A stretch of 64,000 bases of DNA, taken from IMG/VR virus record IMGVR_UViG_3300045988_147264, positions 34,422 through 98,421 of that record. One strand, written 5' to 3'. This document shows positions 25,870 to 64,000 of this stretch, one piece after another. This DNA comes from a virus. The position numbers were made by a program, and so were the translations under genes. The notes beneath the pieces are model-generated. The model saw nothing but the letters and a program-made list of their open reading frames with translations, ran no database searches and was not told where the DNA came from. Position 1 is the first letter of the stretch; every line of letters starts with the position of its first letter.

Positions 25870-25941
25870 GTTGCGGGGGCAGGGATCGAACCTGCGGCCT
25901 CCAGATTATGAGCCTGGCGAGCTACCACTGCTCCACCCCAC
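25870..25941 (-). tRNA. tRNA-Met(CAT) (elongator or Ile2-type; not initiator-like)
   Basis: Cloverleaf folded manually. Acceptor TGTGGGG/CCCCGCA with one G-U, D stem GAGC/GCTC, anticodon loop CTCATAA, T loop TTCGATC. Confidence 0.65.
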
Positions 25942-25947
25942 AATATT

Positions 25948-26019
25948 GATGCCGGTACCGGGCTCGAACCGATATCCTTGGATTACAAAACCAAGATGCT
26001 ACCCATTACACCAACCGGC
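25948..26019 (-). tRNA. tRNA-Thr(TGT)
   Basis: Acceptor TGCCGGT/ACCGGCA, anticodon loop TTTGTAA, T arm ATCGG-TTCGAGC-CCGGT. Confidence 0.6.
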
Positions 26020-26036
26020 ACTATCTTAACTTGACA

Positions 26037-33001: not shown

Positions 33002-33073
33002 TGTTGTGTGATGTAATGGTTAGCATAGGAGATTTTGGTTCTTCTCGTAGAGGTTCGAGTCCTCTCACAACAA
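33002..33073 (+). tRNA. tRNA-Gln(TTG)
   Basis: Perfect acceptor TGTTGTG/CACAACA, D stem ATGT/GCAT, anticodon arm GGAGA-TTTTGGT-TCTTC, T arm AGAGG-TTCGAGT-CCTCT, 72 nt. Confidence 0.7.
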
Positions 33074-33132
33074 CAAATCAATCGGGAGGTTGGTTTCCGC
33101 TCAAACAATAATCCATGGATAAAATTGAGCGG

Positions 33133-33204
33133 GAGGCGATAGTTCAGATGGTTAGAATACTCGAGACGCGTTGGGGGAAGTTGGTTCGAGTCCAACTCGC
33201 CTCA
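33133..33204 (+). tRNA. tRNA-like gene with aberrant (2 nt short, non-canonical) anticodon arm; possible pseudo-tRNA
   Basis: Perfect acceptor GAGGCGA/TCGCCTC, D arm GTTC-AGATGGTTA-GAAT, T arm GTTGG-TTCGAGT-CCAAC. Only 20 nt lie between position 26 and the T stem, and no clean 5-bp anticodon stem exists. Confidence 0.35.
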
Positions 33205-33209
33205 CAAAT

Positions 33210-33294
33210 GCCTTGGTGGTGAAATGGTAGACACGAGGGACTTAAAATCCCTTGGACAGAAATGTCCGTATGGGTTCGATTCCCATCTGGGGCA
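33210..33294 (+). tRNA. tRNA-Leu(TAA), long variable arm
   Basis: Anticodon arm AGGGA-CTTAAAA-TCCCT, variable stem-loop TGGACAGAAATGTCCGT, T arm ATGGG-TTCGATT-CCCAT, 85 nt. Confidence 0.7.
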
Positions 33295-33328
33295 CAAAAC
33301 AAATAACATAATGTTTTCTTCCAACATT

Positions 33329-33451
33329 TTAAGGTTAAGCAAGTCAAACCGGACGAGGTTAAAAGACTGGGCACGGAAATGAGTTATGGTCAATACTCAC
33401 ATTAATCAAAATTGTATCGGGCTGTCGAGCCCTGCCATTGCTTAACCTTAA
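33329..33451. repeat. 14-bp perfect inverted repeat (TTAAGGTTAAGCAA / TTGCTTAACCTTAA) flanking a 95-nt segment with an internal GGGCT-gtcg-AGCCC hairpin
   Basis: Seen directly between tRNA-Leu and ORF 33506. Confidence 0.5.
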
Positions 33452-33505
33452 TTTTTGTAGATTAGTACTTAAGAAGTTATAAATTAATATCGTTATATAA
33501 TTGCT

Positions 33506-33934
33506 ATGTGTTGGTTATCTAATAAATTAAAAATAAAGACCGCTAAAAAAGACATTGCTGTTTGGAAAGTTGTCCTTTTTGATAGAAGAAAAGGAATTTA
33601 TGTATCTCCTATTATTAATTATCGTTATATTTTAGGCGTAATTTATAAAGTGGAAATGATTTTTAAAGTAAATAATTATCCTTTAATAGGAGGGCATGAT
33701 GGGTTTCATTCCTTTTCTAATAGAGTATATTACCGTTACTTTAATAACAAAATTCACATATTCAAAAAGCGCATTTTTGCAGAGGATGAACATGTATTTA
33801 ACATTAGTGGTAATGACGGTTTTAACTTTGCAATAGCCAAAGGACGATTACCAAAAGGCACAAAATATGCAATAAATAAAAATGGTGAAATAATCTCATC
33901 TAGTATAGTTATAGATGATTTTATTGATTTGTAG
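33506..33934 (+). CDS. hypothetical protein (142 aa), AT-rich, embedded in the tRNA cluster
   Basis: Only sizeable ORF between the tRNAs. Lys/Ile/Asn-rich. Confidence 0.35.
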   Translation: MCWLSNKLKIKTAKKDIAVWKVVLFDRRKGIYVSPIINYRYILGVIYKVEMIFKVNNYPLIGGHDGFHSFSNRVYYRYFNNKIHIFKKRIFAEDEHVFNISGNDGFNFAIAKGRLPKGTKYAINKNGEIISSSIVIDDFIDL

Positions 33935-33949
33935 CCACAACTTAAAATC

Positions 33950-34022
33950 AGGGCGTTAGTTCAGTGGTTAGAGCACGAAGCTTATACCTTCGGAGTCAGG
34001 GGTTCAAATCCCTTACGCCCTA
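33950..34022 (+). tRNA. tRNA-Ile(TAT) (AUA-decoding)
   Basis: Perfect acceptor AGGGCGT/ACGCCCT, D arm GTTC-AGTGGTTA-GAGC, anticodon arm CGAAG-CTTATAC-CTTCG, T arm AGGGG-TTCAAAT-CCCTT. Confidence 0.7.
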
Positions 34023-34158
34023 CTTATAGATTTTCTTTAGTTCCTGGATCATGGCCAGGCTGTGTTCTTCTGAAAAGAAATTCAAAAAGCTTACAAAAAT
34101 CAAATGTAGGTGGGAACATGGTAGATTAAGTGGAAACGATCTGGAGAAAATCTATTTT

Positions 34159-34355
34159 GATCTCGTAGCTCAGTTGGCAGAGCACAATATTTCAGACAAT
34201 AGTCCAAACCACAAAAACTTAAAGATATAAGGTTCATCCCTTACACTTCTCAGAAATGATGGAGGATAGTTTAATGAAAACATTAAGTTTGCCTATATAA
34301 AAGCAGGTGTGGCAGGTTAATATTGAAGTCGCGGGTTCGATTCCCGTCGGGATCA
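34159..34355 (+). tRNA. tRNA-like gene interrupted by ~124-nt insertion in the anticodon loop; the 5' side loop reads TTTCAGA (candidate anticodon TCA)
   Basis: Acceptor GATCTCG/CGGGATC (one G-U), D arm GCTC-AGTTGGCA-GAGC, anticodon stem CAATA (34185-89)/TATTG (34321-25), T arm GCGGG-TTCGATT-CCCGT. Confidence 0.45.
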
Positions 34356-34619
34356 CACAATATATAAAAATAGTGGATAGGCCTGGAAGTAGCCATTCCT
34401 TAAAGAGTAATTGACCACCCGATCTATTAACGCTCCTTGGTAAAAGAGGAAAACGCAACTTAGTGGGATAAATGGAATAAGAAATGTAATGCACAAATCT
34501 GTATAACAGAGAGCATAAGATTCAATCTTTTACAGAGAAAACTGAAAAGGTAGTTGTATAACATCTTTGTAAGAGATAAATTTATTTTTGGTGTAATAAC
34601 ACGCTATTTTTATTATTTT

Positions 34620-34692
34620 CTTCATGTGGCGAAGTGGCTAACGCGGCGGTCTGCAAAACCGTTATTCGTGGGTTCGAGTCCCACCATGGAGT
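34620..34692 (+). tRNA. tRNA-Cys(GCA)
   Basis: Acceptor CTTCATG/CATGGAG (one G-U), anticodon arm GCGGT-CTGCAAA-ACCGT, T arm GTGGG-TTCGAGT-CCCAC. Confidence 0.65.
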
Positions 34693-34720
34693 CTAAGTTA
34701 AACAAATAAAGACAAACATC

Positions 34721-38126: not shown

Positions 38127-38924
38127 TTGCACAAGTCACAAATCGCTGTGTTTGTGGCTTATGTTTTAACTAAAAAAGACATGCAGTATTATTTAAAAAT
38201 CGATACGTGCTTCAAGCGCGTACAAGACAAAGATAATCCTTTGTTTAACTGTATTATTCCTGACGAATTCACTCGGGATGAATTCGCTGTTCTACAGGAT
38301 TGCAGATGGTTGGCTACTGAAAAAGTTGACGGTACAAACATGTCATATCATTTCAGATATGAAGCCAATCCGACGGGTAATGAACCACCGCTCGTGGATA
38401 TTCTTGAGATTCATGGTAAAACTCCGGACTCTAAGATACCTATTCCTTTAATCGAGAAGATGCAGTCTCTTGTTTCCAAGGAAGACTTTCATAGGTTGTT
38501 CCTTAGAGAAGATAAGCCTAACTCGCTTGTCGATGTTTGGATTTTTGGTGAAGGTTATGGCAAAAAGATTCAAAAGTTCGGCAATGATTACATCAGTAAT
38601 GGCGTGAATTTCATTGTCTTTGACATCAAAATCGGCAATATTTGGCTCACAAGAGGATCCGTAGAGGAGATTTGTCGGGAGTTACGCCTTGACATTGTGC
38701 CTATCATTGATTATATGACCTTAAATCAAGGTATAAGACTTGTTGAAAAGGGTTTTAAGTCAAGGGTTGCAGAGAATGAAAACCTTAATGCCGAGGGACT
38801 TGTGCTGTCAGCGCCATGTATGATGCTTGACAGGCTCGGCAACAGGATTGTCACCAAGATTAAGACATGTGACTTCAATCAGTTAAAAGCAAAACTCAAA
38901 AGTAATGGAACAGTTCTCGGTTAA
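38127..38924 (+). CDS. Rnl2-like ATP-dependent RNA ligase (nucleotidyltransferase superfamily)
   Basis: Motif I KVDGTN (KxDG), motif IV EGLVLS, motif V IVTKIKT, size ~265 aa. Alternative start at Met 38181. Confidence 0.55.
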   Translation: MHKSQIAVFVAYVLTKKDMQYYLKIDTCFKRVQDKDNPLFNCIIPDEFTRDEFAVLQDCRWLATEKVDGTNMSYHFRYEANPTGNEPPLVDILEIHGKTPDSKIPIPLIEKMQSLVSKEDFHRLFLREDKPNSLVDVWIFGEGYGKKIQKFGNDYISNGVNFIVFDIKIGNIWLTRGSVEEICRELRLDIVPIIDYMTLNQGIRLVEKGFKSRVAENENLNAEGLVLSAPCMMLDRLGNRIVTKIKTCDFNQLKAKLKSNGTVLG

Positions 38925-38951: not shown

Positions 38952-39362
38952 GTGCAGGCTAATATGATTCTCACTGGAATATCACATATGTATTGGATAA
39001 CAAGGTTATCATTAATACATGACGCGTTTTTATTCGTTTTTATCATTGCTGCAACTGTGGCGTCCCTTACCGGAATAATTGTTTTTTTATCGACTGGTGA
39101 TGATAAAGATGACTATGCTTGTTTTAAGCGCGTAAAAAAGTGCTTTATTACAGCAATTGTAGCTGTTGTTCTTAGTGGTGTAGGATTGGTATTTGTTCCA
39201 AAAACAAATGAGGCTCTGCTCATTTATGGCGTAGGTACAACAATTGATTACGTTGACAACAACGAAACCATTAAACAACTCCCGGATAAGGCTGTACAGG
39301 CACTTGACAAGTACCTAGACTTGCTTAACAAAGACAGTGAAAATAAAAATTCTCATAACTAA
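38952..39362 (+). CDS. membrane protein (136 aa)
   Basis: Two hydrophobic helices. Confidence 0.4.
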   Translation: MQANMILTGISHMYWITRLSLIHDAFLFVFIIAATVASLTGIIVFLSTGDDKDDYACFKRVKKCFITAIVAVVLSGVGLVFVPKTNEALLIYGVGTTIDYVDNNETIKQLPDKAVQALDKYLDLLNKDSENKNSHN

Positions 39363-39363
39363 A

Positions 39364-40185
39364 ATGAATTTAATCAAATCATCTGTTGAAGAATGGGTGC
39401 AAGAAAACTCGCTTCAAGGGGCTTACAAACAAATCGAGAAAGCCGCAAGAGTCTGCTATAAGTCAGATCTTGGAAAGAATCCCGCTGAATTTGTTGACAA
39501 GCTCGTTTCTAATGGCCATATGGCTATGCTCGAACACGGCATTCTATATTTACGTATCGAGTTTAACCATTTACTCGACCATACGGTACATAAAAGTGTC
39601 AATAAGTTGTTATCATCTCCTTACGTCAAATTCAAAACATTTGGCGTCAACGGAAAGCCAATAGAATGGCACATAACAGCCAACATGCGAGTGTTCTATG
39701 AACTTAATGTTCTTGATCTGCTACAATATGCTGTTACTCCTGACGACTCGTATGAGAAGGTCAGGTGTTTCCACTTTGTGCTGAACAGGGCGATAGCAAA
39801 TGAGTTCGTTCGTCACAGAAAATTCAGTTTCGCCCAGGAGTCTACCAGATTCTGCAATTACAGCAAGGACAAGTTTGACAATCAGGTAACTTTTGTTATA
39901 TCTGATGAGGTTGAAAACTCTTCCTCAAAAGACCTGTTCAAACGAGCCATGGCTGATGCTGAAAGGCATTATCTCACGGCATTGAAAGATGGTCTTAAAC
40001 CAGAAGAAGCGAGAGACATGTTGCCATTATCAACAAAGACAGAGCTTGTAATGACAGGATTTTTGTCAGATTGGCAGCATTTTATCGATTTGCGTTCCAT
40101 TGGCAGCACAGGAAGGCCGCATCCGGAAGCGAAAAAGCTGGCAGACCAAGTAAAAGAAATACTTTATGGATCTACGAACACTTAA
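39364..40185 (+). CDS. thyX: flavin-dependent thymidylate synthase ThyX
   Basis: ThyX signature RHRxxSxxxxSxR (VRHRKFSFAQESTRF) and N-terminal AARVCYKS. Start set at Met 39364 directly after the upstream stop. Confidence 0.75.
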   Translation: MNLIKSSVEEWVQENSLQGAYKQIEKAARVCYKSDLGKNPAEFVDKLVSNGHMAMLEHGILYLRIEFNHLLDHTVHKSVNKLLSSPYVKFKTFGVNGKPIEWHITANMRVFYELNVLDLLQYAVTPDDSYEKVRCFHFVLNRAIANEFVRHRKFSFAQESTRFCNYSKDKFDNQVTFVISDEVENSSSKDLFKRAMADAERHYLTALKDGLKPEEARDMLPLSTKTELVMTGFLSDWQHFIDLRSIGSTGRPHPEAKKLADQVKEILYGSTNT

Positions 40186-43274: not shown

Positions 43275-43908
43275 TAATGAGTTCAGGTTAACAGAACTTT
43301 TTGAGTACAGCGCTACCGAGTTATACATGATGAGGAAATGCAGGTCAAACATCGGTTTTATAGCCATAAAATATGATGTTATGAAGCATCTTAAAAAGCT
43401 TCCGGAATTTGATAAGGAAGAGAATGGATATATGAGACCATGGGATCTGCTAAAAGAGTTGAGGCCAAATAGGACGAAATATACCGATAACGAACCGTTT
43501 TCATTTCATCACGTTGGGCGCGGATCGATTGGCATAAGCACAACTCTTCCAGTATCAGATTACGGAACGTTTATCTTTCCTTATCCGAAGTGCATCAACG
43601 ATAAGCAAATGTACTATCGTTATATAGGTAAGACAGGCGCGGCATCTGCCTTGTGGAGATACGGGGCCAATTTTATCATGTCAGCCAAGTCTGATACAAA
43701 GAGGCATTGTAGCTACGTAGCTGATTTCTATTTCGTCTATGGAAACAAGGTTGTTCTGGTCTCATGTACTAACTATAATAAAGTTGTGGACGCGCTGTTT
43801 ACCAAGGCAAGATCATCTGAAAACCTTGGATTAGCAAAGGCTTACGACAGGGAACATCCAAATATCTATCATGATATTTATGGTTGTATTGACATTAAGG
43901 TGTTATGA
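43267..43908 (+). CDS. hypothetical protein (213 aa)
   Basis: ORF. Confidence 0.45.
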   Translation: MNDNEFRLTELFEYSATELYMMRKCRSNIGFIAIKYDVMKHLKKLPEFDKEENGYMRPWDLLKELRPNRTKYTDNEPFSFHHVGRGSIGISTTLPVSDYGTFIFPYPKCINDKQMYYRYIGKTGAASALWRYGANFIMSAKSDTKRHCSYVADFYFVYGNKVVLVSCTNYNKVVDALFTKARSSENLGLAKAYDREHPNIYHDIYGCIDIKVL

Positions 43909-44207
43909 AAACGTTTAGAGAGATAGCAACAGAACAAATTGACATTTACGAAAAGAAAAACGCCGATTATGGTGATGCCGCTGAATCGTTATATCGTGAA
44001 CACGGTATGACGTACTTCATAATAATGCTGAAGCAGAAACTTCTCAGAATTGAGAGTATATGTAAACAGCAGTCTGTTAACTTTGAGTCTCTCGAAGACT
44101 CTTTCAGAGATATATCGAATTATGCAATTATGGCCGCGATGCGTTGCCCCGACAAGAAAGAACCGGTACAGCAAGCCGCCACAGTGCATATTCCGAAAAG
44201 ACGTTAA
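43905..44207 (+). CDS. hypothetical protein (100 aa)
   Basis: ORF. Confidence 0.4.
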   Translation: MKTFREIATEQIDIYEKKNADYGDAAESLYREHGMTYFIIMLKQKLLRIESICKQQSVNFESLEDSFRDISNYAIMAAMRCPDKKEPVQQAATVHIPKRR

Positions 44208-47709: not shown

Positions 47710-48698
47710 TGTTCGCAGGCAAATCCAGTGTATGCTTGGATGATATTCGTGCCAGGGTCTCTGAAGAGGCTCTGGCATTTTATTATCTTGAGGCGGCTGT
47801 TCCTTCGCTTATAAACTCTCCTTTCAGGAGGGATGACAAGCCATCGTTTAGCCTGTATTTCAATAGCGAAGGAAATGTGCTATACAAGGATTTCGCTACC
47901 GATGAAAAAGGAACCATATATCACGCGTTAATGAGACTGTTTAACATGTCTTTCAATGATATGCTTCAGACAGTTTATAATGATGTCGTGAATGGTAAAA
48001 TAAGCTCAAATGGAACACAGTTTGGCGTGAAGAGGAGTTACTCCTCACACGAACGCACAAATGACATCAAGATTGATATATGCATCCGCAAATGGATGCC
48101 ATGGGATGTCGAATATTGGTCGTCGTTTGGCATAAATACAGACTGGCTCGATTATGCCGATGTGTATCCCATAACACATTATTTCCTTACAAAGAACAAC
48201 AAAACATCTGTAATACGTGCGGAAAAATACGCTTACGCCTATGTTGAGCGTAAAGAAGGCAAAATCACTGTCAAGGTGTATCAACCATATTGTCCAATGT
48301 ATAAGTGGCCGGCGAACAACAATGACGGCACTACGATCGCATTGTGGTCGAAAATACCTCTACATGGAGACGTTGTTTGCGTGTGTTCTTCAGTAAAGGA
48401 TGCTTTGTGTTTATGGAGCAATACCGGCGTTCCTGCCGTTGCTTTGCAAGGTGAGGGATATCCAATGTCTAATCATGCTGTAAACGACCTTAAAAGCCGT
48501 TTTAAGCGCGTTTTGATTATGTTGGATAATGATATACCAGGCCTTGAGTATTCAACAAAACTAGCCAGGGCTACGGGTTTTACTAACGTTATTCTTCCAT
48601 TCTTCAGTGGTGGAAAGGATATATCAGACTACTATAAAGCTATAAATAACAGACAAAGGTTTATTAAAGATATATTAAATGTCATACATGGATTATGA
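47709..48698 (+). CDS. DNA primase (Toprim domain)
   Basis: Toprim-like segment VVCVCSSVKDALCLW..GVPAVALQGEG and DxD motif LIMLDNDIPG. Confidence 0.55.
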   Translation: MFAGKSSVCLDDIRARVSEEALAFYYLEAAVPSLINSPFRRDDKPSFSLYFNSEGNVLYKDFATDEKGTIYHALMRLFNMSFNDMLQTVYNDVVNGKISSNGTQFGVKRSYSSHERTNDIKIDICIRKWMPWDVEYWSSFGINTDWLDYADVYPITHYFLTKNNKTSVIRAEKYAYAYVERKEGKITVKVYQPYCPMYKWPANNNDGTTIALWSKIPLHGDVVCVCSSVKDALCLWSNTGVPAVALQGEGYPMSNHAVNDLKSRFKRVLIMLDNDIPGLEYSTKLARATGFTNVILPFFSGGKDISDYYKAINNRQRFIKDILNVIHGL

Positions 48699-49566
48699 TT
48701 CGGCTAAACGAATTGCGTGTTATATTGAATGCATAAGCGAATTTGAGGCGTTTGATCGCGATAAAAATATTGTTCTTAAAAGAGCGGTCAGAGCGTGTTT
48801 CTCTTCGTTACGAAAGCGGGAAGATATAACTCGCATAAAGATTTATATGTACGCATATGAGCCGAAACTTTCGATCGAAGATAATGTTTTCTATTATAAT
48901 AAACATAAAGGTATAAAGAGATATTATCCAGTTACCGATTTATCAATTACGATGATGAGGAAGATCTTAGATCTTGCAAAGAGTATTGTTGACTTTAAGT
49001 CCTCAATTTCTATTGAGCATATCATCGACGAAAACGGCAACGATAGGTTTCAATATTGCACAGATCTTCTGTTTCCAAGCGATACAAATACCATTCAAAA
49101 ACTGTTCGTGTGTACCGTTGTAAGATGGTTCTATGAACAACAGAACCGTTATATCGCATTAAAAGCTTATGAATTGTATAACACCGAGAAGTATCATCGC
49201 TTTGGTTTTTTCAATTTATACTGTTTCGTAAAGGAACAATGTTACGATAATGTGAATGATTTTGGACACGATCTTCTTGATGGTAAAAGTCTTGTTCGTA
49301 GAACATTTTTCGTTCCAGAAAAACTCAAATCGTTATACGAAATGAGTTCCTCGTTACGCAATGGTAAAAGTATCACATTACTTTGGATGGGGTGTGGCTA
49401 TTCTGGAATACCAGTAGAAAACACTTCAATGCAAGTTACAGAAATTTACTGCAAAGGCGGTAAACAAGGATTTGATCTTCAAGAGAGGCTTGAAAGCAAT
49501 ATTGATTTCATTATTTCAAAAATAAAAGGAAATGAGACATTTGACTGTGAGAACGAGGAACAGTAA
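48679..49566 (+). CDS. hypothetical protein (295 aa)
   Basis: ORF. Confidence 0.45.
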   Translation: MSYMDYDSAKRIACYIECISEFEAFDRDKNIVLKRAVRACFSSLRKREDITRIKIYMYAYEPKLSIEDNVFYYNKHKGIKRYYPVTDLSITMMRKILDLAKSIVDFKSSISIEHIIDENGNDRFQYCTDLLFPSDTNTIQKLFVCTVVRWFYEQQNRYIALKAYELYNTEKYHRFGFFNLYCFVKEQCYDNVNDFGHDLLDGKSLVRRTFFVPEKLKSLYEMSSSLRNGKSITLLWMGCGYSGIPVENTSMQVTEIYCKGGKQGFDLQERLESNIDFIISKIKGNETFDCENEEQ

Positions 49567-50332
49567 ATGTTATGCGTTGCGTGACATTGAAGTTCCCCAA
49601 AAAACGATCCTCAGGCTTGGTAGCGTCACGCCTACTGCGGAAATAACACGTAAGACTGACATCATTGAGATAAATCCAGCGGAAGCATGCGCCATATCGT
49701 CAGATAAGCGCGCCACAAGAAGGATTCTTCTCGAAGCAGGTGTGTCGATTGCAGACGAATGCGTGATTCCAGAAGATGTTCGTGACAATCACGACAACAT
49801 TATTGCCATAATCCTTAAGTATATGCAAGATAATGATTGTAACATCATTGCAAAGCGTTATAATTCCTCAAAAGGGAAGGGGTTACTGCTGCTGGACAGT
49901 CCTGATGCAGTTGAGTCTTTTGTGAATTTCGCTAAAATTGAGAATTGGGTGCTTGAGCGCTATTACACGTATTCCCGTGAATACCGTATTCATGTAACCA
50001 AGGATGGTTGTTTTCTCGCAGATAGAAAGATGCTTATTAACGGAGCCGATGAAAGATGGCATCGTCACGAGACAAATTCTGTCTGGATTAACGAAAATAA
50101 CGAATTATTTAACAAACCGATTAACTGGGAAGATATAGTTGCCGATTGTGTAAAGGCAATGCATGCAATCGGTTTGGATATCTGTTGCTTTGATGTCAAG
50201 GTGCAGAATGACAAACATGAGAATCCTAAATGGATAATCATGGAGTCAAATAGCGCACCTGGACTCAATGACTCTTCTATTGAATTATATAGAGAACAAA
50301 TTAAAAAAATTATCAATGAAAGAACGGTATAA
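49532..50332 (+). CDS. RimK-like ATP-grasp ligase
   Basis: ATP-grasp motifs IIAKRYNSSKGKGLLLL, EYRIHV, IMESNSAPGL (compare RimK EVNSSPGL). Confidence 0.55.
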   Translation: MRHLTVRTRNSKCYALRDIEVPQKTILRLGSVTPTAEITRKTDIIEINPAEACAISSDKRATRRILLEAGVSIADECVIPEDVRDNHDNIIAIILKYMQDNDCNIIAKRYNSSKGKGLLLLDSPDAVESFVNFAKIENWVLERYYTYSREYRIHVTKDGCFLADRKMLINGADERWHRHETNSVWINENNELFNKPINWEDIVADCVKAMHAIGLDICCFDVKVQNDKHENPKWIIMESNSAPGLNDSSIELYREQIKKIINERTV

Positions 50333-51428
50333 CAACCTTCTGAAAATGTATCCACGGCTTAAGCCGCGTATGTTATTTGGTCAGTCAAGAACAGTTTACA
50401 AATCAACTACCATAAGACTTGACGGTGAGGAAAAAGGAGCCATATGTAAAGACTCTAAATTCGGCGAAAAATGTTGTTTTGGCAACACGACTAAACAAAG
50501 ATTTATTTCCGCAAAAATCTCTTATGATATCTTCTTTACGGACGATATTAGGTTTGTCGAACGCTTGATGCCAGTAACGCTGTTCACAAAGGACGAGATT
50601 GAATCATTCTTGAATTATCTTAAAAACGTGGTCGATTTTGAGTTTACTGTAGAATATGGCCAAGTAAAGAATTTTGATCTTTTCAAAAATGATGGTAATT
50701 TCGTTCATTATTTAGAAAATAGTTGTAAAGAAACCAAAATAGATTATCGTGAATTAACGGGTTTTCTCCTGCACGTTACAATCGATGCCATAAGGCCTAT
50801 TCATGCGTTCATACTTCAATGGATAAGGCAAATATATGACGGACGAGCTCAATTTTATACCGGCATAGTATATGAACTGAAGAAACGAACCGAGTTCAAG
50901 AATCTGTCTCTGTTTACCATAATGAGTCTTGTATATAGCTCATTACGGTTTAGTGAGGGCTCGACCGACATGTGTGTATTTCCTACGGATATGTATGAAG
51001 GAAGGTTGTCTTTCCCAAAAATGAAAGACAGGTTCAGCGATATGAATAAAATGTTTAAAAGATTCGTCAATACAAGCATTTATTCAAGCAAACGGTACGA
51101 TCATGAAAAAGAAGTTCCAGCAGATCTCAAAGAGTATACTTATGGAGATTGTCTTGAATTCATAGACATGGTTTGGTGCAATCTTTGCAGAGACTTGTTC
51201 ATTGAGAATCTGGAAGTGAAAATCAACGACTCTGATAGAATTTCAGTTTTTGGCGATTATCGTGAAATGAGTGATTTCATTAATCGTTATGACGAAATTG
51301 TGGAATTGTTCGCCAGAATAGCGTCTTTAATTTTGTCCGGAAAGTGGAAACTTGACAAAGAGAGTCTCGATTGGAGAATCGACACAAAGCGAATCATCAA
51401 TGACACCTATAAATACTTGAGTGAATGA
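50316..51428 (+). CDS. hypothetical protein within the amide-ligase module
   Basis: ORF. Start moved to Met-17 (ATG 50316 verified). Confidence 0.45.
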   Translation: MKERYNNLLKMYPRLKPRMLFGQSRTVYKSTTIRLDGEEKGAICKDSKFGEKCCFGNTTKQRFISAKISYDIFFTDDIRFVERLMPVTLFTKDEIESFLNYLKNVVDFEFTVEYGQVKNFDLFKNDGNFVHYLENSCKETKIDYRELTGFLLHVTIDAIRPIHAFILQWIRQIYDGRAQFYTGIVYELKKRTEFKNLSLFTIMSLVYSSLRFSEGSTDMCVFPTDMYEGRLSFPKMKDRFSDMNKMFKRFVNTSIYSSKRYDHEKEVPADLKEYTYGDCLEFIDMVWCNLCRDLFIENLEVKINDSDRISVFGDYREMSDFINRYDEIVELFARIASLILSGKWKLDKESLDWRIDTKRIINDTYKYLSE

Positions 51429-52078
51429 TGAACAAAACAAGAAAAGTATACGTTGTTGGAATGGGCACCGGATATGCTCATCCCATAAAGAACAAACAGT
51501 TGGTCAATACCATTCAAGAAGCGGACATTGTCCTTTTCACAGGTGGCGCTGACGTAGATCCATCAATCTATGGTAAGAAAGCCATAGAAGCAACATGGCC
51601 CAACCTTCGTAGAGATATCTATGAAAAGGAGTTCTATGAAGCCATGAGGCCAGACCAGTTGGCAATCGGTATTTGTCGCGGATTGCAGTTATTTTGTGCT
51701 CTTAATGGAGGCAATCTTGTGCAGGATACCACAAATCACGCTGGACCAGACCATACAGTGAAGATTCTCGAAACCGGAGATACATTCATGGTTTCATCGC
51801 TGCATCATCAAATGGTCTATCCTTTCGATATGTCAAATAGAGACTATACCATTCTTGGCATATCAGAACACAACAGAAGTCTTTATTACGCTGGTGACGG
51901 TATTGATCCTGAGGTAATAAAGGACTTTGGTGAACCTGAAATCGTATTGTTTCACAAAGAGGGAAGGCCAGTCAGCTTCGGCATTCAGGGACATCCGGAA
52001 ATGATGTCTCCAAACAGTCCTTTTGTGCAGTACGAAAACGAAATGATTGAAAAGTTGTTAAAACAAATCAAAGGCTAA
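51425..52078 (+). CDS. class-I glutamine amidotransferase-like / gamma-glutamyl hydrolase (peptidase C26)-like
   Basis: Nucleophile elbow AIGICRGLQLF (G-x-C-x-G-x-Q) and GIQGHPE (His-Pro-Glu) triad elements. Confidence 0.65.
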   Translation: MMNKTRKVYVVGMGTGYAHPIKNKQLVNTIQEADIVLFTGGADVDPSIYGKKAIEATWPNLRRDIYEKEFYEAMRPDQLAIGICRGLQLFCALNGGNLVQDTTNHAGPDHTVKILETGDTFMVSSLHHQMVYPFDMSNRDYTILGISEHNRSLYYAGDGIDPEVIKDFGEPEIVLFHKEGRPVSFGIQGHPEMMSPNSPFVQYENEMIEKLLKQIKG

Positions 52079-52081
52079 CAA

Positions 52082-52951
52082 ATGATCAAAGAATTTACAG
52101 TCGGGGCAGACCCCGAGATGTTTATCATTAATGAGACAACCGGAGAGGTGGTCTCCTCGATTGGATTAATCCCTGGCGAGAAAGGTGACGCCTATCGCGC
52201 CGAAGACATGCCAGAGGGTTACGGCATTGAAACAGACAACATTCTTGCTGAATTCAATATCCCTCCTTGCAAAACCAAGGATGAGTTCATTAATGCCATG
52301 AACTACATGAAGGATTATATTCGTAAGTTCGTGAAGAATGTCAATCCTGAGTTGAATATCAAGTGCTCTGCCAGCGAAATGGTCGGAAGCGATCAATTAA
52401 GGTCTCCTGAAGCCAAGATGTTCGGATGCTCTGTCGATTTCAATGCTTATACAGAAGACTCCAATCCTAAACCTTGCGGAGAAAGCACCAACCTCAGATC
52501 TGCCGGATGCCATATTCATCTTGGCTATGATCCGAAGAGTTACGAGTCAAGCATCGAATTGTTGAAACTCATGGATGTGTTTGTTGGCTTGCCATCAATA
52601 CTTATCGACAAGGATGATCGTCGCCGCAGTCTTTACGGCAAAGCCGGTTGTTTCAGGCTTACGCCGTATGGCATTGAGTATAGAGTGTTGTCGGCAAAGA
52701 TGTATGACACCAACGATCTCATGTCGCTAGTCTGGGACGGTGTCATGCTTGCGATTGCTGCCTATAATAACAATTTCGAGTATAACGCCGGAGCAGAGAT
52801 GGTTATTCAGGCCATCAATGAAAGCGATGAGAAACTCGCAAATGCTGTGCTTGAAGATGTGTTTGGAAGCATTTTCAAAAATTTCCCTGCAATGGCTGAC
52901 CAAGCAAAATCGTTTATTACTGAATTAGGAACCATAAAGAATAAATTGTAA
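52082..52951 (+). CDS. GS/GCS2-like carboxylate-amine ligase (amidoligase) paralog 1
   Basis: N-terminal VGADPEM and GCHIHLGYD. Shares the HIHLG motif with 54353..55672. Confidence 0.4.
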   Translation: MIKEFTVGADPEMFIINETTGEVVSSIGLIPGEKGDAYRAEDMPEGYGIETDNILAEFNIPPCKTKDEFINAMNYMKDYIRKFVKNVNPELNIKCSASEMVGSDQLRSPEAKMFGCSVDFNAYTEDSNPKPCGESTNLRSAGCHIHLGYDPKSYESSIELLKLMDVFVGLPSILIDKDDRRRSLYGKAGCFRLTPYGIEYRVLSAKMYDTNDLMSLVWDGVMLAIAAYNNNFEYNAGAEMVIQAINESDEKLANAVLEDVFGSIFKNFPAMADQAKSFITELGTIKNKL

Positions 52952-54375
52952 TGTGTGGAATCTTTGGCTTTATAGGCCAACGGCAGAAACCGTTTGACAA
53001 AAGAGCATTCGTTACCTTGGGTGTCGCAAATGACGCCCGAGGCGGCGATTCTTGCGGCATATTCATTGACGGACAGTACGAATATGGTGTCGATAAGCTT
53101 AAGTTGTTCGGCGATTTCTGGTATCAATCAAAACTTATCAAAGAGACAAAAAGCGCTACAATCGCTCTTGGGCATGACAGAAAGGCTTCTGTCGGTGGAG
53201 TGAAGGCTGAGTTGGCTCAACCTGTCATCATTAATGGAGAAAACGGACCGGAGTTTGTCTTTATCCATAATGGTACAATGGTGAATCATACCGCTCTCGC
53301 AAAGAAATATCTGCCAGATATGGATACCGCTCATATGAGCGACTCTCAAATCATGGCGCATATTTTCTATCGTCACGGATTTGATTCCATTGAGGAATAT
53401 ATCGGAGCGGCTGTATTTGTCGCTGTCGATTATCGTTCCGGAAAACCTGTGTCGTATTTCTTCAAGGGAGAATCAAAAGAGTATAGTTATTCGACAAAGG
53501 CCACTGAAGAAAGACCATTGTTCTTCACGATGTCTCACCAGCAGGTCTATTTTTCTTCAATCTATTCTACGCTTGCTACTCTATTTCCTGATAAGGCATT
53601 TGCCAAAAACATTTATTTTCCTAATGGGAATATACTTTATACAGTAAATCCTGATGGAGATTTTGCTGTTGTCAAGGAATACGACAGGAGCAAGTGCTAT
53701 CAGAAAGAATCGTATACGAGCGCCGCTTATAACTATTATGGATATAATCGAAATGTCGATTTTGATGACGAGGAGAGTTATTACGATTACTACAGAGGCA
53801 AAAACAATAATAACACCCCAACAAACCTGTTGACGTCTGGTAACAATGGTAAGCTTACGTTTGATTCCAAGACGATGCTGTATTACGAAGGAGATGATGT
53901 CGCGCATGGGTTGTATTATGTTGTTGACAACGGCTCAATCGTGCCAGCAAGAACAGCCAATGCGTTTGAGGCGTTCTTCTTCAATGGCGTTCTCATTAAG
54001 AATGCAGATGCGTTATTCTTCTTGATAGAATTTATGGTGACAATGCAGTTGACTGAAGATAAGGTTTTCGAGAAATATGACTCCCTTGTGAGGTACTTAA
54101 GTCCATTGCCGGCGGTTAGCCTTGGTGATGACGGTACTCCCACCTTTCATAAGTATGTCACGCCTACCGAATGTGAGCTGTTTAGCGGTACAATGTTTCC
54201 ACTGTTTGCCGGTAGGTCAATTATGTGTCAAGCCGGTGCTGTATCGTCTTCAACGCTTATCGCCGATTCAGTAGGAGAGAACATCTATAAGAAATTTAGC
54301 GAAGAGCCTATCAATATGGAATTACTTGATGACTTTTTAGATTCAACCGTAAATGAAACTGAAAATAATAAATAA
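52951..54375 (+). CDS. class-II (Ntn) glutamine amidotransferase domain protein
   Basis: N-terminal MCGIFG places the catalytic Cys at position 2, typical of Ntn GATases (PurF, AsnB, GlmS type). C-terminal ~270 aa of unknown function. Confidence 0.55.
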   Translation: MCGIFGFIGQRQKPFDKRAFVTLGVANDARGGDSCGIFIDGQYEYGVDKLKLFGDFWYQSKLIKETKSATIALGHDRKASVGGVKAELAQPVIINGENGPEFVFIHNGTMVNHTALAKKYLPDMDTAHMSDSQIMAHIFYRHGFDSIEEYIGAAVFVAVDYRSGKPVSYFFKGESKEYSYSTKATEERPLFFTMSHQQVYFSSIYSTLATLFPDKAFAKNIYFPNGNILYTVNPDGDFAVVKEYDRSKCYQKESYTSAAYNYYGYNRNVDFDDEESYYDYYRGKNNNNTPTNLLTSGNNGKLTFDSKTMLYYEGDDVAHGLYYVVDNGSIVPARTANAFEAFFFNGVLIKNADALFFLIEFMVTMQLTEDKVFEKYDSLVRYLSPLPAVSLGDDGTPTFHKYVTPTECELFSGTMFPLFAGRSIMCQAGAVSSSTLIADSVGENIYKKFSEEPINMELLDDFLDSTVNETENNK

Positions 54376-55672
54376 TCTTTCCGAAGATTCAAGACAAGAT
54401 CGTGATGGATATGTCAGAGGAATCTTGCAGGCCACAAAGAACTCCATTGTTGTAGGATGGGTTCCACTGTCTCCTCTTAATGTGCTTATCTGTACGAAGC
54501 TGAGAATTCCTGGACTTTATGAATATGTCAATATGTCACGTGTTTATGGTCATTCATATGAAGAGCTTAAAGACGTATTGCATTTTGACAATTCGATAGG
54601 GCTTTACAGGTTCATATTTGAGTCTACTCCAGAAACAATTGCCATGGCTACTGCCGTCATGGGTAATGGTCAGTATCCATATCTCATTGAAAGAGAGTAT
54701 GAGGCATTGAATAATCTAGGTAGGTTCAATGATTCTCACATTGTCGAACAGCACAAGACATATACTCTTGGCGACAAGCTTAAATACACGTTTGGCATTG
54801 AGTTTGAGACATCCTGCGGTTACGTTCCTTGCGATAGGACATTCATAGATGGCCTTATTCCGTTAAGAGATGGAAGTATTTCTGGAATAGAATACTCAAC
54901 AATTGTTCTTAAAGGAAATGACGGATTGAATACACTTAAACAGTGTATGGATGACCTGACCAAATACACTATGTTTAACAAGGAGTGCGCGTTACACATT
55001 CACCTTGGTGGGTTTCCGGTAAAACAGGAATATATCGCAGCATTGGCCGGCGTACAGAAGAAACTTGAGGATTCAAACTATCTGTTTACTCTGCCTGAAT
55101 GGTCATTTAACACAGAGCTTTATAAGTCTAACGGCAAAAGCTACTGCAAGAAGACACCGATATACGAAAGTTTCGATGAGTTATTCCACGGCGTGACTGG
55201 TAAAGATTTCAAGGGTTCATTGTCAGAACCACATCCAAGGGATCCCGAAAGAACTTCCAAGTGGAATATATCTTCCAGATATTATGGACTCAATCTTGTC
55301 AATATGGTCTGCTATAAGACTCCAAAGACTGTTGAGTTCAGATTCCTCAGACCAACAGACAACTTCAAAAAGGTGTATATTTGGCTTGCGATATTTAACG
55401 CGCAGCTGGAGTTCACCAAAATGCTTGTTGAAAAATACAAGAGAGCCATATCAGAGGATGCAAATGCTTCGTTCATGTTAGATTATATAAATGATCTTAA
55501 TTTTGACCTGACAACCGTTTTGTCAAGTGTATATGAAGGAGACTTTCTTGATTGGCTTATTGACGGTCTGAAACTCATGAAGCGAGTTATTAGTGTTCAA
55601 AATGGAGCAAATGACCACTACGGATCACTTGTAAGTGTTGAAAACAAGATTCTTGGCACTGATGTACTTTAG
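54353..55672 (+). CDS. GS/GCS2-like carboxylate-amine ligase (amidoligase) paralog 2
   Basis: TFGIEFETS (G-x-E-x-E) and CALHIHLGG motifs. Confidence 0.45.
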   Translation: MKLKIINNLSEDSRQDRDGYVRGILQATKNSIVVGWVPLSPLNVLICTKLRIPGLYEYVNMSRVYGHSYEELKDVLHFDNSIGLYRFIFESTPETIAMATAVMGNGQYPYLIEREYEALNNLGRFNDSHIVEQHKTYTLGDKLKYTFGIEFETSCGYVPCDRTFIDGLIPLRDGSISGIEYSTIVLKGNDGLNTLKQCMDDLTKYTMFNKECALHIHLGGFPVKQEYIAALAGVQKKLEDSNYLFTLPEWSFNTELYKSNGKSYCKKTPIYESFDELFHGVTGKDFKGSLSEPHPRDPERTSKWNISSRYYGLNLVNMVCYKTPKTVEFRFLRPTDNFKKVYIWLAIFNAQLEFTKMLVEKYKRAISEDANASFMLDYINDLNFDLTTVLSSVYEGDFLDWLIDGLKLMKRVISVQNGANDHYGSLVSVENKILGTDVL

Positions 55673-55748
55673 GATTGGAAATATTTTGTCACACTGATAT
55701 TGCGTAATTCAATATTATTCAGTATCTTTGTGACAAAAATATTTTCAT

Positions 55749-58076: not shown

Positions 58077-58595
58077 GTGAGAGAGAAAATACTTGGAGTA
58101 ATTGCTGTAATTCTCATCATAGTTGTCGTGATTATCATGGCAATTCTATTTTGTGATTTCATATCGAGAAAAATATCAGCAAAGCGACGCAACAAAACAG
58201 CAGTGTCGTTCTTTGAAACATTGAATCTTGTCGGTCTCCCGATAATAACTGTCAATAATAATGGTCACAAACTTAATTTCTTGCTTGATACAGGAAGCAA
58301 TACTTCCTATATTAATGAGGGATGTATTGACATGCTTGATTATAAGAAGACCGATGAGAAAGGTAAGATTGTTGGTATGAACGGTACTGTCTCGGCAGGG
58401 GAGTTTATAGAGATGAATATATCGTATCGAAACAACTCTTTTGAAGAGACATTCCTTACCGCAAACCTCAATGACCTGTTCGCTAAGATTCGTGCGAATA
58501 AGGGCATTGAACTTCATGGCCTGATTGGAGTAAGTTTTTTCGATAGATATCGTTACATTCTTGATTTCAAAGAATATGCGGCATATCAGGGGTAA
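58077..58595 (+). CDS. membrane-anchored retropepsin-like aspartic protease
   Basis: N-terminal TM segment ILGVIAVILIIVVVIIMAILF. Aspartic protease motif FLLDTGSNTSYI (D-T-G-S). Confidence 0.45.
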   Translation: MREKILGVIAVILIIVVVIIMAILFCDFISRKISAKRRNKTAVSFFETLNLVGLPIITVNNNGHKLNFLLDTGSNTSYINEGCIDMLDYKKTDEKGKIVGMNGTVSAGEFIEMNISYRNNSFEETFLTANLNDLFAKIRANKGIELHGLIGVSFFDRYRYILDFKEYAAYQG

Positions 58596-60716: not shown

Positions 60717-60753
60717 AGAGGCGATGGGCTACGGCTTGTCGCCTCTTTTTTTT
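60717..60753 (+). terminator. rho-independent terminator (AGAGGCGA-loop-TCGCCTCT followed by T8)
   Basis: Seen directly: agaggcgatgggctacggcttgtcgcctctttttttt. Confidence 0.6.
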
Positions 60754-60896
60754 ACCATGATTGGTCGTGACATGTTGTTCGTCAATAATTAAGATTGTTG
60801 CAATGCTGTACGATTGTAGTAATTCATTGGGTCAATTGCGCTTTTTTGATTATCTTTGTCGCATTGTTTAAACAATTTTAATTTATAATATATTAT

Positions 60897-63800
60897 GAGT
60901 GAATTTTGTCCTATTATCAAGAAAGGTGGGGCATTCGATGCGTTCGCAAAGAAATACCACATTTCAGAAGACGAATTAAAGGCCTCAATACGAAAGGTTG
61001 GTATTGACAACCCTAAACTTCAAGAAGTTTCGGAAGATGAGTTGTTGAATTCCCCTGAATTTCGTAAACAGGCATCAAACGACTATTGGATTAATCCTTC
61101 TGGTTGGATTGCGTCTAATAAGGAACATTTTGAAGACGTAAATGCAGAGTTTTCTGACTTCAAGAGAACACTGAGCGACAATGTGCAATGGATTGATGAT
61201 AATACTATTTATTTTAAGCGTGACGAAATCGATCAGGATGACATTGATGACATCGAGTATATTGAGGGAATTATCGGTCATGAAAATGTGTTCAATAGAG
61301 AAACGAATGATGGTGTAGTCATTTCATTTGCTCTTCCAAAAGGATTTCAAAGCGCCTTAGAAAAACGAGTAAAACCGGCTACTGAAAAGAAACAATATGA
61401 TATAAATAATCATATTCAAATTCATAAAGGAAATTGGTCTAGAAAAGAAGCTGAACAAAATCCAAATATTCTTTATATATTTACAGATAATACTGATAGA
61501 GATAGCGGTTCTGGAATTATTCCTAATAATAGTTGGTATTCTGAAAAATATGGTAAGGGACATCACTTCCCTACCACGACAGCTGCTGTTATTAGGGGCT
61601 TGAATAATGCACGACCTGTTAGTACACAAAGGTGGTATCATCAAGGAGCAAAGGGTGCCACTGGCAGATGGACCGATGCCGATATAAATGAGTTTAAGAG
61701 TGTTATTAGAGAGGAGCTACAAGAAATTATTAATGAGTTTAATACCGGAAAGTATGATACTATTATGTTTCCAAATGGTGATGGATTGTTTAATACACGT
61801 ATTTCAAACATCACTAAAGACAGAACTCCACAATTATATCAAGCACTTGGGGAACTTTTACATGAATTTAGTTTTGATAATTTGGTTCCATCTGATATTC
61901 AAATAAATTCAACCATTTCACAAATCAATGAAGATGATTGGAAAGAAGTTCAAGATATATTAAAAAAACTTAAACAAACACTTGGCAAACGTATTCGTAA
62001 GAGCGATAACTTTGAAAAGGATCATACATACTATATATTAAATCCTCAGACGGGTACTTGGGAAAAGGCACAAACAAGCGTATCGGCAATCGCTGAAAAC
62101 GTGTATAAACGTGGTGTTTGGGGACGCTCCGAAGACGATATGGCTTTTGATACAAATCAGCCAGATGAAAACAATCCGGCCATTAGACTTGGCAAGGACT
62201 TTGACAGATTTGCGAGAGACTATTTTTCTAAAAAAGGCGTAAAGCAAGAAAACTTTCCTAACTACTCTAATGAAGAGTTTAATGCCCTTAAGCGTGATTT
62301 TAAGGCGTTTACAGACATGCTTGACGAAAGATTCGGTAAAGATAATTGGAGAATTAATTCAAGCCCTATAACCATTGGAGGAGTGGTTAAACGTGGAAAG
62401 AACAACGTTACTGTAGGAGGAGAACTTGATTTGCTTCTGTACACAAAAGACAAGCGCTTCTATGTCATCGATATGAAGACGTGGAACGCAAACAATAAAG
62501 ATTCTTACTGGAATCAAGCAGCCCTTGGTTATGCAAGACAACAGTCTCTTTACATAGCCTTGATGCAACAGAATCTTGCTGAACTTGATCCGAACAACCC
62601 AAATATGTCAGGTGTAATCGATGGTGCATTTCTTTTGAGGGCGACACAAAACTATCCTCGATACAACGCTAATAAGGAAAAGTACACAATTGACAAGGAT
62701 GGTAAGATATTCATTAAAAACGTTCGTGGAGAATACATTCCTTTAGTTAATTCAAGTGAATATTCTGCTGCAAGACTTGTTCTCGCAAATCAAGATGACG
62801 GTTCGTACTTTATTAATATTGACGACATAGACGGCTCAAAGGAAATGATTGATTCATTCCTGAAGGACATGGATACCGAGTCGGCAAAGGAGTTTCTTGA
62901 AGGTGCTACACAGGAAGATATTGCTGCCGCTTTGAACAGAATTAAAGAACTTAAGAAACAGACCATTCTCGGAGACGATAAAAGAAGCATAGGCTTGTCA
63001 ACAATATTTGATTCTGAGATTGGTATTCTTCCGTCAAAGGTGACGAGAGTTGCCAATAAGATGGCAAAGCTGTTTTCGTTTTATTTGAATTTGTTGCAAA
63101 ATGATCCAGCGGCAAAGACCAAAGGTTATCTAAAGAATCAATACAGTGACGACATTGACTTCTCTAAAATGTCTCGTAAGGATATTCTAATGATTCCGCG
63201 ATTCGCCAGCGATCTTATGTATACATCTGTTAGGCAACATCTGGAGAACGCGCGTGTCATGCTTTCAGATCCAGGACTTATCGCTGAGATGGATTTGTTT
63301 CTCGCCAATTATGATACAATGGTAGAGCTCGCAAGCAAGCAGCTTATTAAGAACGAACATATGTATATTACTGTTGATGGGAAGCTCCTGGAAGAGGAGG
63401 AATCAACAGAGGATGTTGAGGGCAATGATTCGCAGGATAATGGTTCCCCTGAAGCCAACGAGTCTGGTGAAGTTGAGATGATTTATGGCGAAACAAAACT
63501 ACATCAGTCGGCCATCAAAGCGGTATCTCTCGATGTAAAGACGATTCTATCTACAATCCGTGAATCAACTGACGACGGTCAATACTTTGTTGATGAGTAT
63601 GGCTTATGGGATTTCATGGATTACAGTACAGTGGCGTCAAGCATCCTTAAATGGACTCAGGGAACAACGTCAAAATCGGAGTTCTTAGATGCACTTAGGG
63701 AACACGCTAAGTCAACACCTTGGCTAAGGGATGTTCTTGCAATGGTTGACGTTTATGCTCCAAATATAATACCTACAAAGATAACTTATGAACGCTCGTC

Positions 63801-64000
63801 TTCCCTATATAGGAATTTCGCCAAGTCAGAACTACCATTCTATTCATCAAGGCTTGTCCGTGGAAATGATGGCAATCTTGTAATGAAGACCATTATGGAG
63901 AACACTGGTAAGACAGCCAATTATGTTCTTACAAGACTTATGGCTGATTATGAAAAGGGTAACGCTCCAATATTCAAGAATAATAGGCTTGATATTTTTG
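60897..64000 (+). CDS. large multidomain protein, C-terminally truncated by the window (>1030 aa), with an internal PD-(D/E)xK-like motif
   Basis: Open frame from ATG 60897 to the window end. Motif GGELDLLLYTKDKRFYVIDMKTW (E..D...D-x-K). Confidence 0.5.

Follow-up and report, generated by a model that had tools for sequence, protein, structure and literature searches.

A seven-gene amidoligase cassette in the replication module of a crAss-like phage

A described phage cassette and its counterpart in the window

The gene set of the phiEco32/LUZ24-type phage amidoligase cassette, and a function for it, were predicted in 2009. Iyer, Abhiman, Burroughs and Aravind, writing in Mol Biosyst that year, are reportedly the source of the ligase family PF14395 and of the neighbourhood noted for PF12224. 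As relayed in later papers, the prediction was that modification of cell wall or peptidoglycan peptides blocks superinfection (PMC10580990; PMC11945000). Papers describing the genomes of LUZ24-like and PA11-like phages record the same genes, including a PA11-type class-I amidotransferase (PMC6209634). The literature we searched held no experimental work on cassette function, in keeping with a sequence-only reading of the DNA studied here, which had called the system uncharacterised. That DNA, a 64,000-nucleotide stretch of the virus record IMGVR_UViG_3300045988_147264 (positions 34,422 to 98,421; hereafter the window), contains a further instance of the gene set.

In the window, seven + strand genes form a unit (48679-55672). 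They encode, in order, a protein of a family that we call UNK (UNK-a, 48679-49566), an ATP-grasp carboxylate-amine ligase of the RimK/LysX/cyanophycin-synthetase clade (49532-50332), a second UNK protein (UNK-b, 50316-51428), a protein of the class-I glutamine amidotransferase (GATase) fold (GAT1, 51425-52078), a COOH-NH2 ligase type 2 (PF14395, 52082-52951), a class-II, N-terminal nucleophile (Ntn) GATase (GAT2, 52951-54375) and an Amidoligase_2 ligase (PF12224, 54353-55672). Adjacent genes are separated by -35 to +3 nt, with overlapping start and stop codons, and every gap between 44292, which precedes the helicase gene, and 55672 is shorter than 25 nt. Judged by its protein families, the unit is a member of the phiEco32/LUZ24-type cassette. 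Our preferred reading, held tentatively and drawn from comparison of sequences, is that the seven genes would be a functional, co-transcribed amidoligase cassette that modifies peptide carboxylates, either of a peptidoglycan stem-peptide precursor or of a protein.

The sequence-only reading had described five contiguous, co-oriented genes from 49532 to 55672. Profile searches confirmed all five enzyme types, and the co-orientation and tight packing hold, but that interval contains six open reading frames (ORFs) rather than five. The unit also starts earlier, at 48679, because the ORF at 48679-49566 and the inner ORF belong to one family that accompanies the cassette elsewhere. At the 3' end, the unit probably stops at the first true intergenic gap (55673-55748, 76 nt). 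Within this gap, TATCTTTG at 55723 is a -7 motif of the Bacteroidota type (TAnnTTTG) and is overlapped by an inverted repeat, TTTTGTCACA...TGTGACAAAA; together they may be a candidate promoter or operator for the downstream DUF1064 endonuclease gene. TAnnTTTG occurs 18 times over the whole region against 13 +/- 4 expected, which is not significantly above chance, and a sigma-70 promoter scan (71 sites against 55 +/- 10 expected) was uninformative for a crAss-like phage. The sole strong + strand terminator nearby is at 60717-60746.

The combination is the amidoligase/GATase/ATP-grasp neighbourhood that comparative genomics has described: both PF14395 and PF12224 exceed their Pfam cutoffs in the window, and the same gene set is found in phages phiEco32, LUZ24, O4, Cellulophaga phi14:2 and cr108_1, with related cassettes also in Proteus 3H10_20 and Lbo-JY46. 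Like the phiEco32 and LUZ24 cassettes, the window version combines the two ligases with a class-II GATase bearing a long C-terminal extension and a RimK-clade ATP-grasp, sits beside primase and helicase genes, and appears restricted to phages. It differs in lacking GGCT/AIG2, in adding a class-I GATase and two UNK genes, and in gene order, which in LUZ24 and phiEco32 is COOH-x-AMI2-GAT2-ATPgrasp-GGCT (COOH and AMI2 being the PF14395 and PF12224 ligases). Paundecimvirus phages (PA11/O4/TC6) have all five enzyme types, including the class-I amidotransferase, at 24-38% identity, yet in the order GAT1-x-GAT2-COOH-x-AMI2-ATPgrasp and with no UNK detected.

GGCT appears to be a variable component, since it occurs in some related crAss-like loci, whereas a hidden Markov model (HMM) built from four phage GGCTs had no match in the six-frame translation of the window. 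A complementary distribution, with GAT1 replacing GGCT, was considered and rejected, as both occur together in several loci (L056-59, L068, L075, L078, L080-83). The Lbo-JY46 cassette (L109, 2748-15000) encodes a class-I GATase, GGCT, a PF14395 ligase, a long ATP-grasp and large unannotated ORFs, and lies directly downstream of PncB-like and PrsA-like genes, a pair reminiscent of phage NAD+ salvage or reconstitution.

To survey the spread of the cassette, we searched for the PF14395 ligase. By tblastn it is present in at least 314 phage records, from phages of Pseudomonas (LUZ24-like, PA11-like), Escherichia (phiEco32-like), Vibrio, Aeromonas and Proteus to Cellulophaga phi14:2 and a Leptolyngbya phage, and in IMG/VR it is found in 506 stretches. 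Among the 80 best IMG/VR loci, on which the gene-order statistics are based, the order GAT1-PF14395-GAT2-PF12224 is almost invariant, on crAss-like backbones as well as on unrelated contigs of 40-350 kb. A 206-kb phage-like contig, for example, reads ATPgrasp-UNK-UNK-GAT1-COOH-GAT2-AMI2. The ATP-grasp gene is adjacent in about half of the loci. In about 30 others (L019-type; for example L019 5441-6508 and L012 5572-6597) its position is taken by an unannotated family of about 350 aa, which is marginal against the ATP-grasp profile (hhalign probability 7.6%) and which we call unrelated.

A pattern-based scan of 185,579 species genomes, in which divergent members could be missed, found PF14395 relatives on only 19 contigs. 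All 19 are binned in assemblies of the metagenome-assembled-genome type with inconsistent taxon labels, and many are of phage-like length; the PF14395 ligase family therefore appears restricted to phages. In some loci cassette genes are split: the PF14395 ligase gene lies in two pieces separated by an inserted ORF in L084, L087 and L088, and in L111/L112 (7538-9169) a reverse-strand ORF of about 250 aa interrupts GAT1, a pattern suggesting insertions of the homing endonuclease or intron type.

The nearest public relatives of the phage are crAss-like, which supports the Bacteroidota host that had been proposed. DNA alignment to crAss phage cr108_1 (Steigviridae) is weak (69% identity over 7% of the query), and no near-identical record was found among GenBank phage records; two IMG/VR contigs of 92-94 kb share the same genes at 95-99% amino-acid identity. 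The block had been placed in an early or auxiliary module. It lies instead in the replication module, at the 3' end of a helicase-primase gene array: the order is orf200, DnaB-type helicase, Sak4-like ATPase, orf316, primase, the cassette, DUF1064 endonuclease and PD-(D/E)XK exonuclease, and from orf200 through the exonuclease it is identical in cr108_1.

Ligases and glutamine amidotransferases

Each enzyme family was compared with 38-81 homologs, and catalytic residues are at least 93% conserved in every one. The ATP-grasp protein (266 aa) matches PHROG 2599 at 5.9e-22, and a nine-homolog profile matches PDB structures of RimK and alpha-L-glutamate ligases at about 1e-8 over nearly the full length, as well as cyanophycin synthetase. 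The Lys and the Glu/Asn metal ligands are conserved (K108, E150, R152, D221, E238, N240). The earlier label of a RimK-like ATP-grasp thus stands as a clade resemblance but not as family membership: the protein falls under the curated RimK thresholds (16.5 against 21 bits for PF08443, 26 against 143.4 bits for TIGR00768), and its NCBIfam matches to cyanophycin synthetase and rimK_fam are weak and far under the cutoffs. RimK, the alpha-L-Glu ligases and cyanophycin synthetase, the enzymes nearest to it by sequence comparison, are carboxylate-extending enzymes.

The PF14395 ligase (289 aa; Pfam name 'Phage phiEco32-like COOH.NH2 ligase-type 2'), GS/GCS-like (GS, glutamine synthetase; GCS, gamma-glutamylcysteine synthetase), scores 39.2 bits against a Pfam cutoff of 25 and matches PHROG 3815 at 4.4e-63; E12, E57, H144/H146, R181, E199 and R201 are invariant. 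The GS-like Amidoligase_2 protein (439 aa) scores 25.9 bits against a cutoff of 22 and matches PHROG 2443 at 6.7e-13. Its N-terminal part of about 145 aa is variable and E150, E152, H215, H217, E328 and R330 are invariant. For neither ligase did sequence or profile searches find a solved relative. Both had been described as GS-like paralogs sharing a GIEFE motif. The GS-like character holds, but they belong to two different Pfam families and can hardly be aligned with each other (hhalign probability 7%), and, although the motifs quoted are present, GIEFE is in Amidoligase_2 only, the PF14395 ligase having GIETD.

GAT1 (217 aa) has the class-I GATase/peptidase C26 triad ascribed to it: it matches Peptidase_C26 at 2.4e-15 (57 bits against a cutoff of 20.5), GATase at 1.6e-6 and PHROG 7218 at 1.7e-23, and the triad C84-H190-E192 is at least 93% conserved among 76 homologs. 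It is nearest to stand-alone gamma-glutamyl hydrolases of the Peptidase_C26 type; its best PDB match is Lin1909 (3fij), and in NCBIfam it has a weak match to gamma-glutamyl-CDP-amidate hydrolase. No known NH3-accepting synthase was found in its surroundings, where it adjoins or is fused with UNK and lies upstream of the PF14395 ligase; either of these could be its partner. GAT2 (474 aa), which begins MCGIFG and had been read as an Ntn-type GATase, consists of a Cys2 nucleophile domain (1-250), a disordered Tyr/Asn-rich linker (255-298) and a conserved C-terminal domain (300-474). The class-II glutamine-site residues are conserved (C2, R77, N107, G108, D131), and the Ntn domain resembles PurF/GlmS and the gamma-glutamyl amidohydrolase EgtC alike. 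Residues 300-474 had no match to phosphoribosyltransferase, SIS or AsnB synthetase domains.

Several characterized systems follow a comparable chemical logic. In peptidoglycan amidation and branching (MurT/GatD, AsnB1/LtsA, Aslfm), stem-peptide carboxylates are amidated in a glutamine-dependent manner via class-I or class-II GATases, and an ATP-grasp enzyme adds an amino acid. The cassette resembles these systems in that logic, yet its ligases are of GS-like families for which we found no solved or characterized member, and Pfam and NCBIfam gave no Mur-ligase or AsnB-type synthetase domain in the seven cassette proteins. Gamma-glutamyl groups are added and removed by the pairs PuuA/PuuD, EgtA/EgtC and BtrJ/BtrG; the cassette shows no orthology to them and, instead of a single pair, has three ligases together with two enzymes of hydrolase type. 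The window ATP-grasp is in the same clade as RimK, which polyglutamylates ribosomal protein S6 and has as its partner RimB, a retropepsin-like protease (PMC11957791). A retropepsin-like aspartyl protease gene (58077-58595, +; 172 aa, PF13650 at 8e-8, N-terminal transmembrane helix) lies 2.4 kb downstream of the cassette. Its product, unlike RimB, is membrane-anchored and falls in another Pfam family. The idea that it is a conserved partner like RimB was rejected, because its linkage to the cassette is limited to two lineages (L002/L003 and L005/L061).

A companion family with two invariant residues

The ORF between the ATP-grasp and GAT1 genes encodes UNK-b, of 370 aa or, from the start at 50268, 386 aa; gene callers elsewhere take Met17 of the longer form. 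UNK-b had no match in Pfam, PHROGs or NCBIfam, nor in the PDB by sequence, and UNK-a (295 aa) had none in Pfam, PHROG or NCBIfam. The two are nevertheless paralogs: a local iterative family HMM recovers UNK-b at 1.7e-38 and UNK-a at 1e-28. Foldseek with an AlphaFold2 model of UNK-b against viral models (BFVD) recovered, with E values from 6e-7 to 1e-5, its own ortholog in 'CrAss-like virus ctelJ1', an UNK-a ortholog (E 1e-5) and, at the equivalent position, both hypothetical proteins of cr108_1.

The family, which is restricted to phages, is small, with 110 clusters at 50% identity among 1.84 billion proteins. Just two of its residues are invariant, a Cys within a C-F-G/S motif and an Arg. In UNK-a these are C40 and R149; in UNK-b, Cys54-Phe55-Gly56 lies in a low-confidence loop of the model, and Arg171 is invariant. 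Against the two near-identical IMG/VR genomes, dN/dS is 0.26-0.39 for UNK-a and UNK-b (0.31-0.39 for UNK-a) and 0.01-0.12, at similar dS, for the other 12 genes from helicase to exonuclease. The UNK genes are thus real genes under purifying selection, yet they change several-fold faster than the enzymes that they accompany, and the difference in rate points to UNK as the candidate host-facing component.

Among the 80 best IMG/VR loci, nearly all have UNK as the gene immediately before GAT1, frequently as two copies, and in three UNK is fused behind a GATase-I domain. Beyond these, HMM and hhalign comparisons found no UNK homologs among the ORFans of about 310 aa that lie upstream of the ligase in LUZ24, phiEco32, O4 and Proteus 3H10_20, and the lone hint is a borderline Foldseek match in an Aeromonas phage (E 0.07). 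A role as a LysW-like amino-group carrier for the RimK-like ligase, which would have a C-terminal Glu, was considered and rejected: the 89 C-termini examined end mostly in Lys or Arg, with Glu in 8.

Proposed activity and possible acceptors

In the mechanism that we propose, the cassette proteins would act during the replication phase on free carboxyl groups of a peptide-type substrate. They are predicted to be soluble and cytoplasmic: transmembrane or hydrophobic segments were detected in none of the seven, in a scan for which the membrane-anchored protease downstream was the positive control. The two GS-like ligases would activate a carboxylate with ATP and then form an amide, each paired with a Cys-nucleophile enzyme (GAT1 with PF14395, GAT2 with PF12224), as suggested by the gene order GAT1-ligase, GAT2-ligase. 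The GATase of each pair would either supply glutamine-derived NH3 to its ligase or later trim gamma-glutamyl groups; the hydrolase alternative would fit the Peptidase_C26 kinship of GAT1 and the EgtC resemblance of GAT2. The RimK-clade ATP-grasp would add a Glu-like amino acid to a terminal carboxylate. The UNK proteins, tied to GAT1 by adjacency and fusion, would cooperate with it, most simply as substrate-presenting or targeting subunits. Leading acceptors would be a peptidoglycan stem-peptide precursor, as in the published prediction, or a protein. The pairing, the UNK role and the acceptor are the parts of this scheme that we infer. Divided roughly by acceptor, a peptidoglycan precursor and an acceptor of some other kind are each possible though individually unlikely, a protein and a small molecule are each slightly less likely, and nucleic acid is the least expected.

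Several points weigh against modification of peptide carboxylates. The evidence is comparative throughout. We found no peptidoglycan-related domain (Mur ligase, peptidoglycan-binding) in the cassette and identified no protein target. The setting among replication genes, rather than among lysis or host-takeover genes, would also suit nucleotide-related chemistry. RimK-family ATP-grasps act on small cofactors as well (F420, tetrahydromethanopterin), so membership of the clade is no proof of a peptide substrate, and an ATP-grasp was not detected beside the cassette in 27 loci. The pairing of GATases with ligases is drawn from gene order, and phage O4 splits the GAT2-Amidoligase_2 adjacency. With its two invariant residues and no recognizable fold, UNK leaves any role for it a guess.

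A side-by-side arrangement of unrelated enzymes whose shared chemistry is coincidental we regard as very nearly discounted. Phage genomes do pack unrelated genes tightly, and the block contains many sigma-70 promoter-like sites, in numbers that do not exceed the chance expectation. Against this reading, about 80 metagenomic loci with differing backbones, as well as cultured phages that are only distantly related, share these families and their order. Domain fusions and overlapping start and stop codons also speak for a unit, and the conservation data exclude chance juxtaposition. A small-molecule pathway is plausible, although we consider it unlikely. Here the product made or recycled would be a metabolite of gamma-glutamyl or peptide-like type, such as a glutathione-like thiol, a cofactor tail or a gamma-glutamyl polyamine, with the logic of PuuA/PuuD, EgtA/EgtC or the gamma-glutamyl cycle; it would support replication or stand in for a depleted metabolite. 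The enzyme types parallel those of such pathways (GCS/GS-like ligase, ATP-grasp, gamma-glutamyl-cleaving enzymes); GAT1 belongs with Peptidase_C26, many phages have GGCT alongside the cassette, the Lbo-JY46 cassette adjoins PncB- and PrsA-like metabolic genes, and all cassette proteins appear soluble. Yet fast-evolving, duplicated UNK partners would be unusual for metabolism of a housekeeping type, no cassette enzyme attains the curated NCBIfam equivalog cutoff of a known metabolic enzyme, and the core ligase family is apparently absent from cellular genomes.

Hypermodification of nucleic acids or nucleotides, in which amino acids or amines would be joined to a carboxyl-bearing base in DNA, dNTPs or tRNA and so evade restriction, has a precedent in CmoY, which ligates glycine to 5-carboxymethylcytosine in DNA (PMC12783734). 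In the CmoX/CmoY system, too, a phage enzyme joins an amine to a carboxylate at the expense of ATP, and some homologs have a glutaminase domain (PMC12783734). The cassette lies in or beside replication and nucleotide-metabolism modules (primase, helicase, near UDG or RNR) in several unrelated lineages, a DUF1599 gene lies upstream at 43905-44207, and in viral metagenomes genes for thymidine hypermodification are found together with those for amidoligases and amidotransferases (PMC8989533). Canonical DNA, however, has no carboxylate, and Pfam and PHROGs searches of the + strand ORFs, with the - strand structural genes left out, found no enzyme that would install such a handle (dNMP hydroxymethylase, CmoA/CmoX-like or other DNA methyltransferase, TET/JBP, 5-hmdU kinase, DpdA). 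ThyX and dUTPase indicate ordinary dTTP synthesis, CmoY is asparagine-synthetase-like (AMP-forming) and not homologous to the cassette ligases, and a little-finger-like structural match reflects a generic ferredoxin-like fold at marginal Z. The DNA of a cassette-bearing LUZ24-like phage was cut by 11 of 16 restriction enzymes (PMC11945000). The sequence-only reading had raised nucleic-acid modification on the strength of adjacent thyX and dut genes; both lie about 9 kb upstream, the actual neighbours being primase and the DUF1064 endonuclease, and with no handle-installing gene among the + strand ORFs we judge the idea improbable.

Other features of this part of the genome are recorded here. 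The thyX gene (39337-40185, +) encodes 282 aa, of which the Thy1 domain covers residues 145-276 only, leaving an extension of some 140 aa at the N-terminus unexplained. An RNA-ligase-like gene (38127-38924, +; PHROG 548, 2.3e-17) belongs to this + strand module as well, and a Proteus phage with the cassette also carries an RNA ligase nearby. The DUF1599 gene, in the + strand series shortly before the helicase gene, encodes 100 aa and scores 34.6 bits (cutoff 25) for 'Nucleotide modification associated domain 1'. A long ORF (60889-64000, +; more than 1037 aa) that runs off the end of the window encodes DUF7831 and a PD-(D/E)XK nuclease domain; upstream of it are the terminator at 60717-60746, the strongest intrinsic one of the region, and a TATCTTTG motif at 60851. 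Seven tRNA genes mark the switch between structural and replication genes, for Met and Thr on the - strand (25870-26020) and for Gln, Ala, Leu, Ile (anticodon TAT) and Cys on the + strand (33002-34693).

A more speculative form of protein modification, which we rate as rather improbable, is a pupylation-like phage conjugation system, in which UNK targeting or carrier subunits would steer the three ligases to tag a host macromolecule. The tag would be a gamma-glutamyl group or short peptide on a defence, translation or cell-wall-synthesis protein, and the two GATase-type enzymes would mature or erase the mark. What suggests it is that UNK is fast-evolving and duplicated, has an invariant Cys on a flexible loop and is fused to a thiol hydrolase in some phages.

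Beyond the gene set, which is already described and annotated, the analysis adds the UNK companion family, which is genetically linked to the class-I GATase and in some phages fused to such a domain, a conserved tandem of two GATase-ligase pairs, an apparent confinement to phages and negative results for DNA modification. The cassette is widespread: at least 314 phage records have it, among them those of LUZ24 and phiEco32, which are tractable, and so do hundreds of phage contigs from metagenomes. The window shows that it is also carried by crAss-like phages of the human gut. Whichever substrate it acts on, be it cell wall, protein, metabolite or nucleic acid, the chemistry would be new phage biochemistry. 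If the cassette does conjugate tags to host macromolecules, hundreds of phages would possess a new class of viral chemistry for takeover or counter-defence at the post-translational level.

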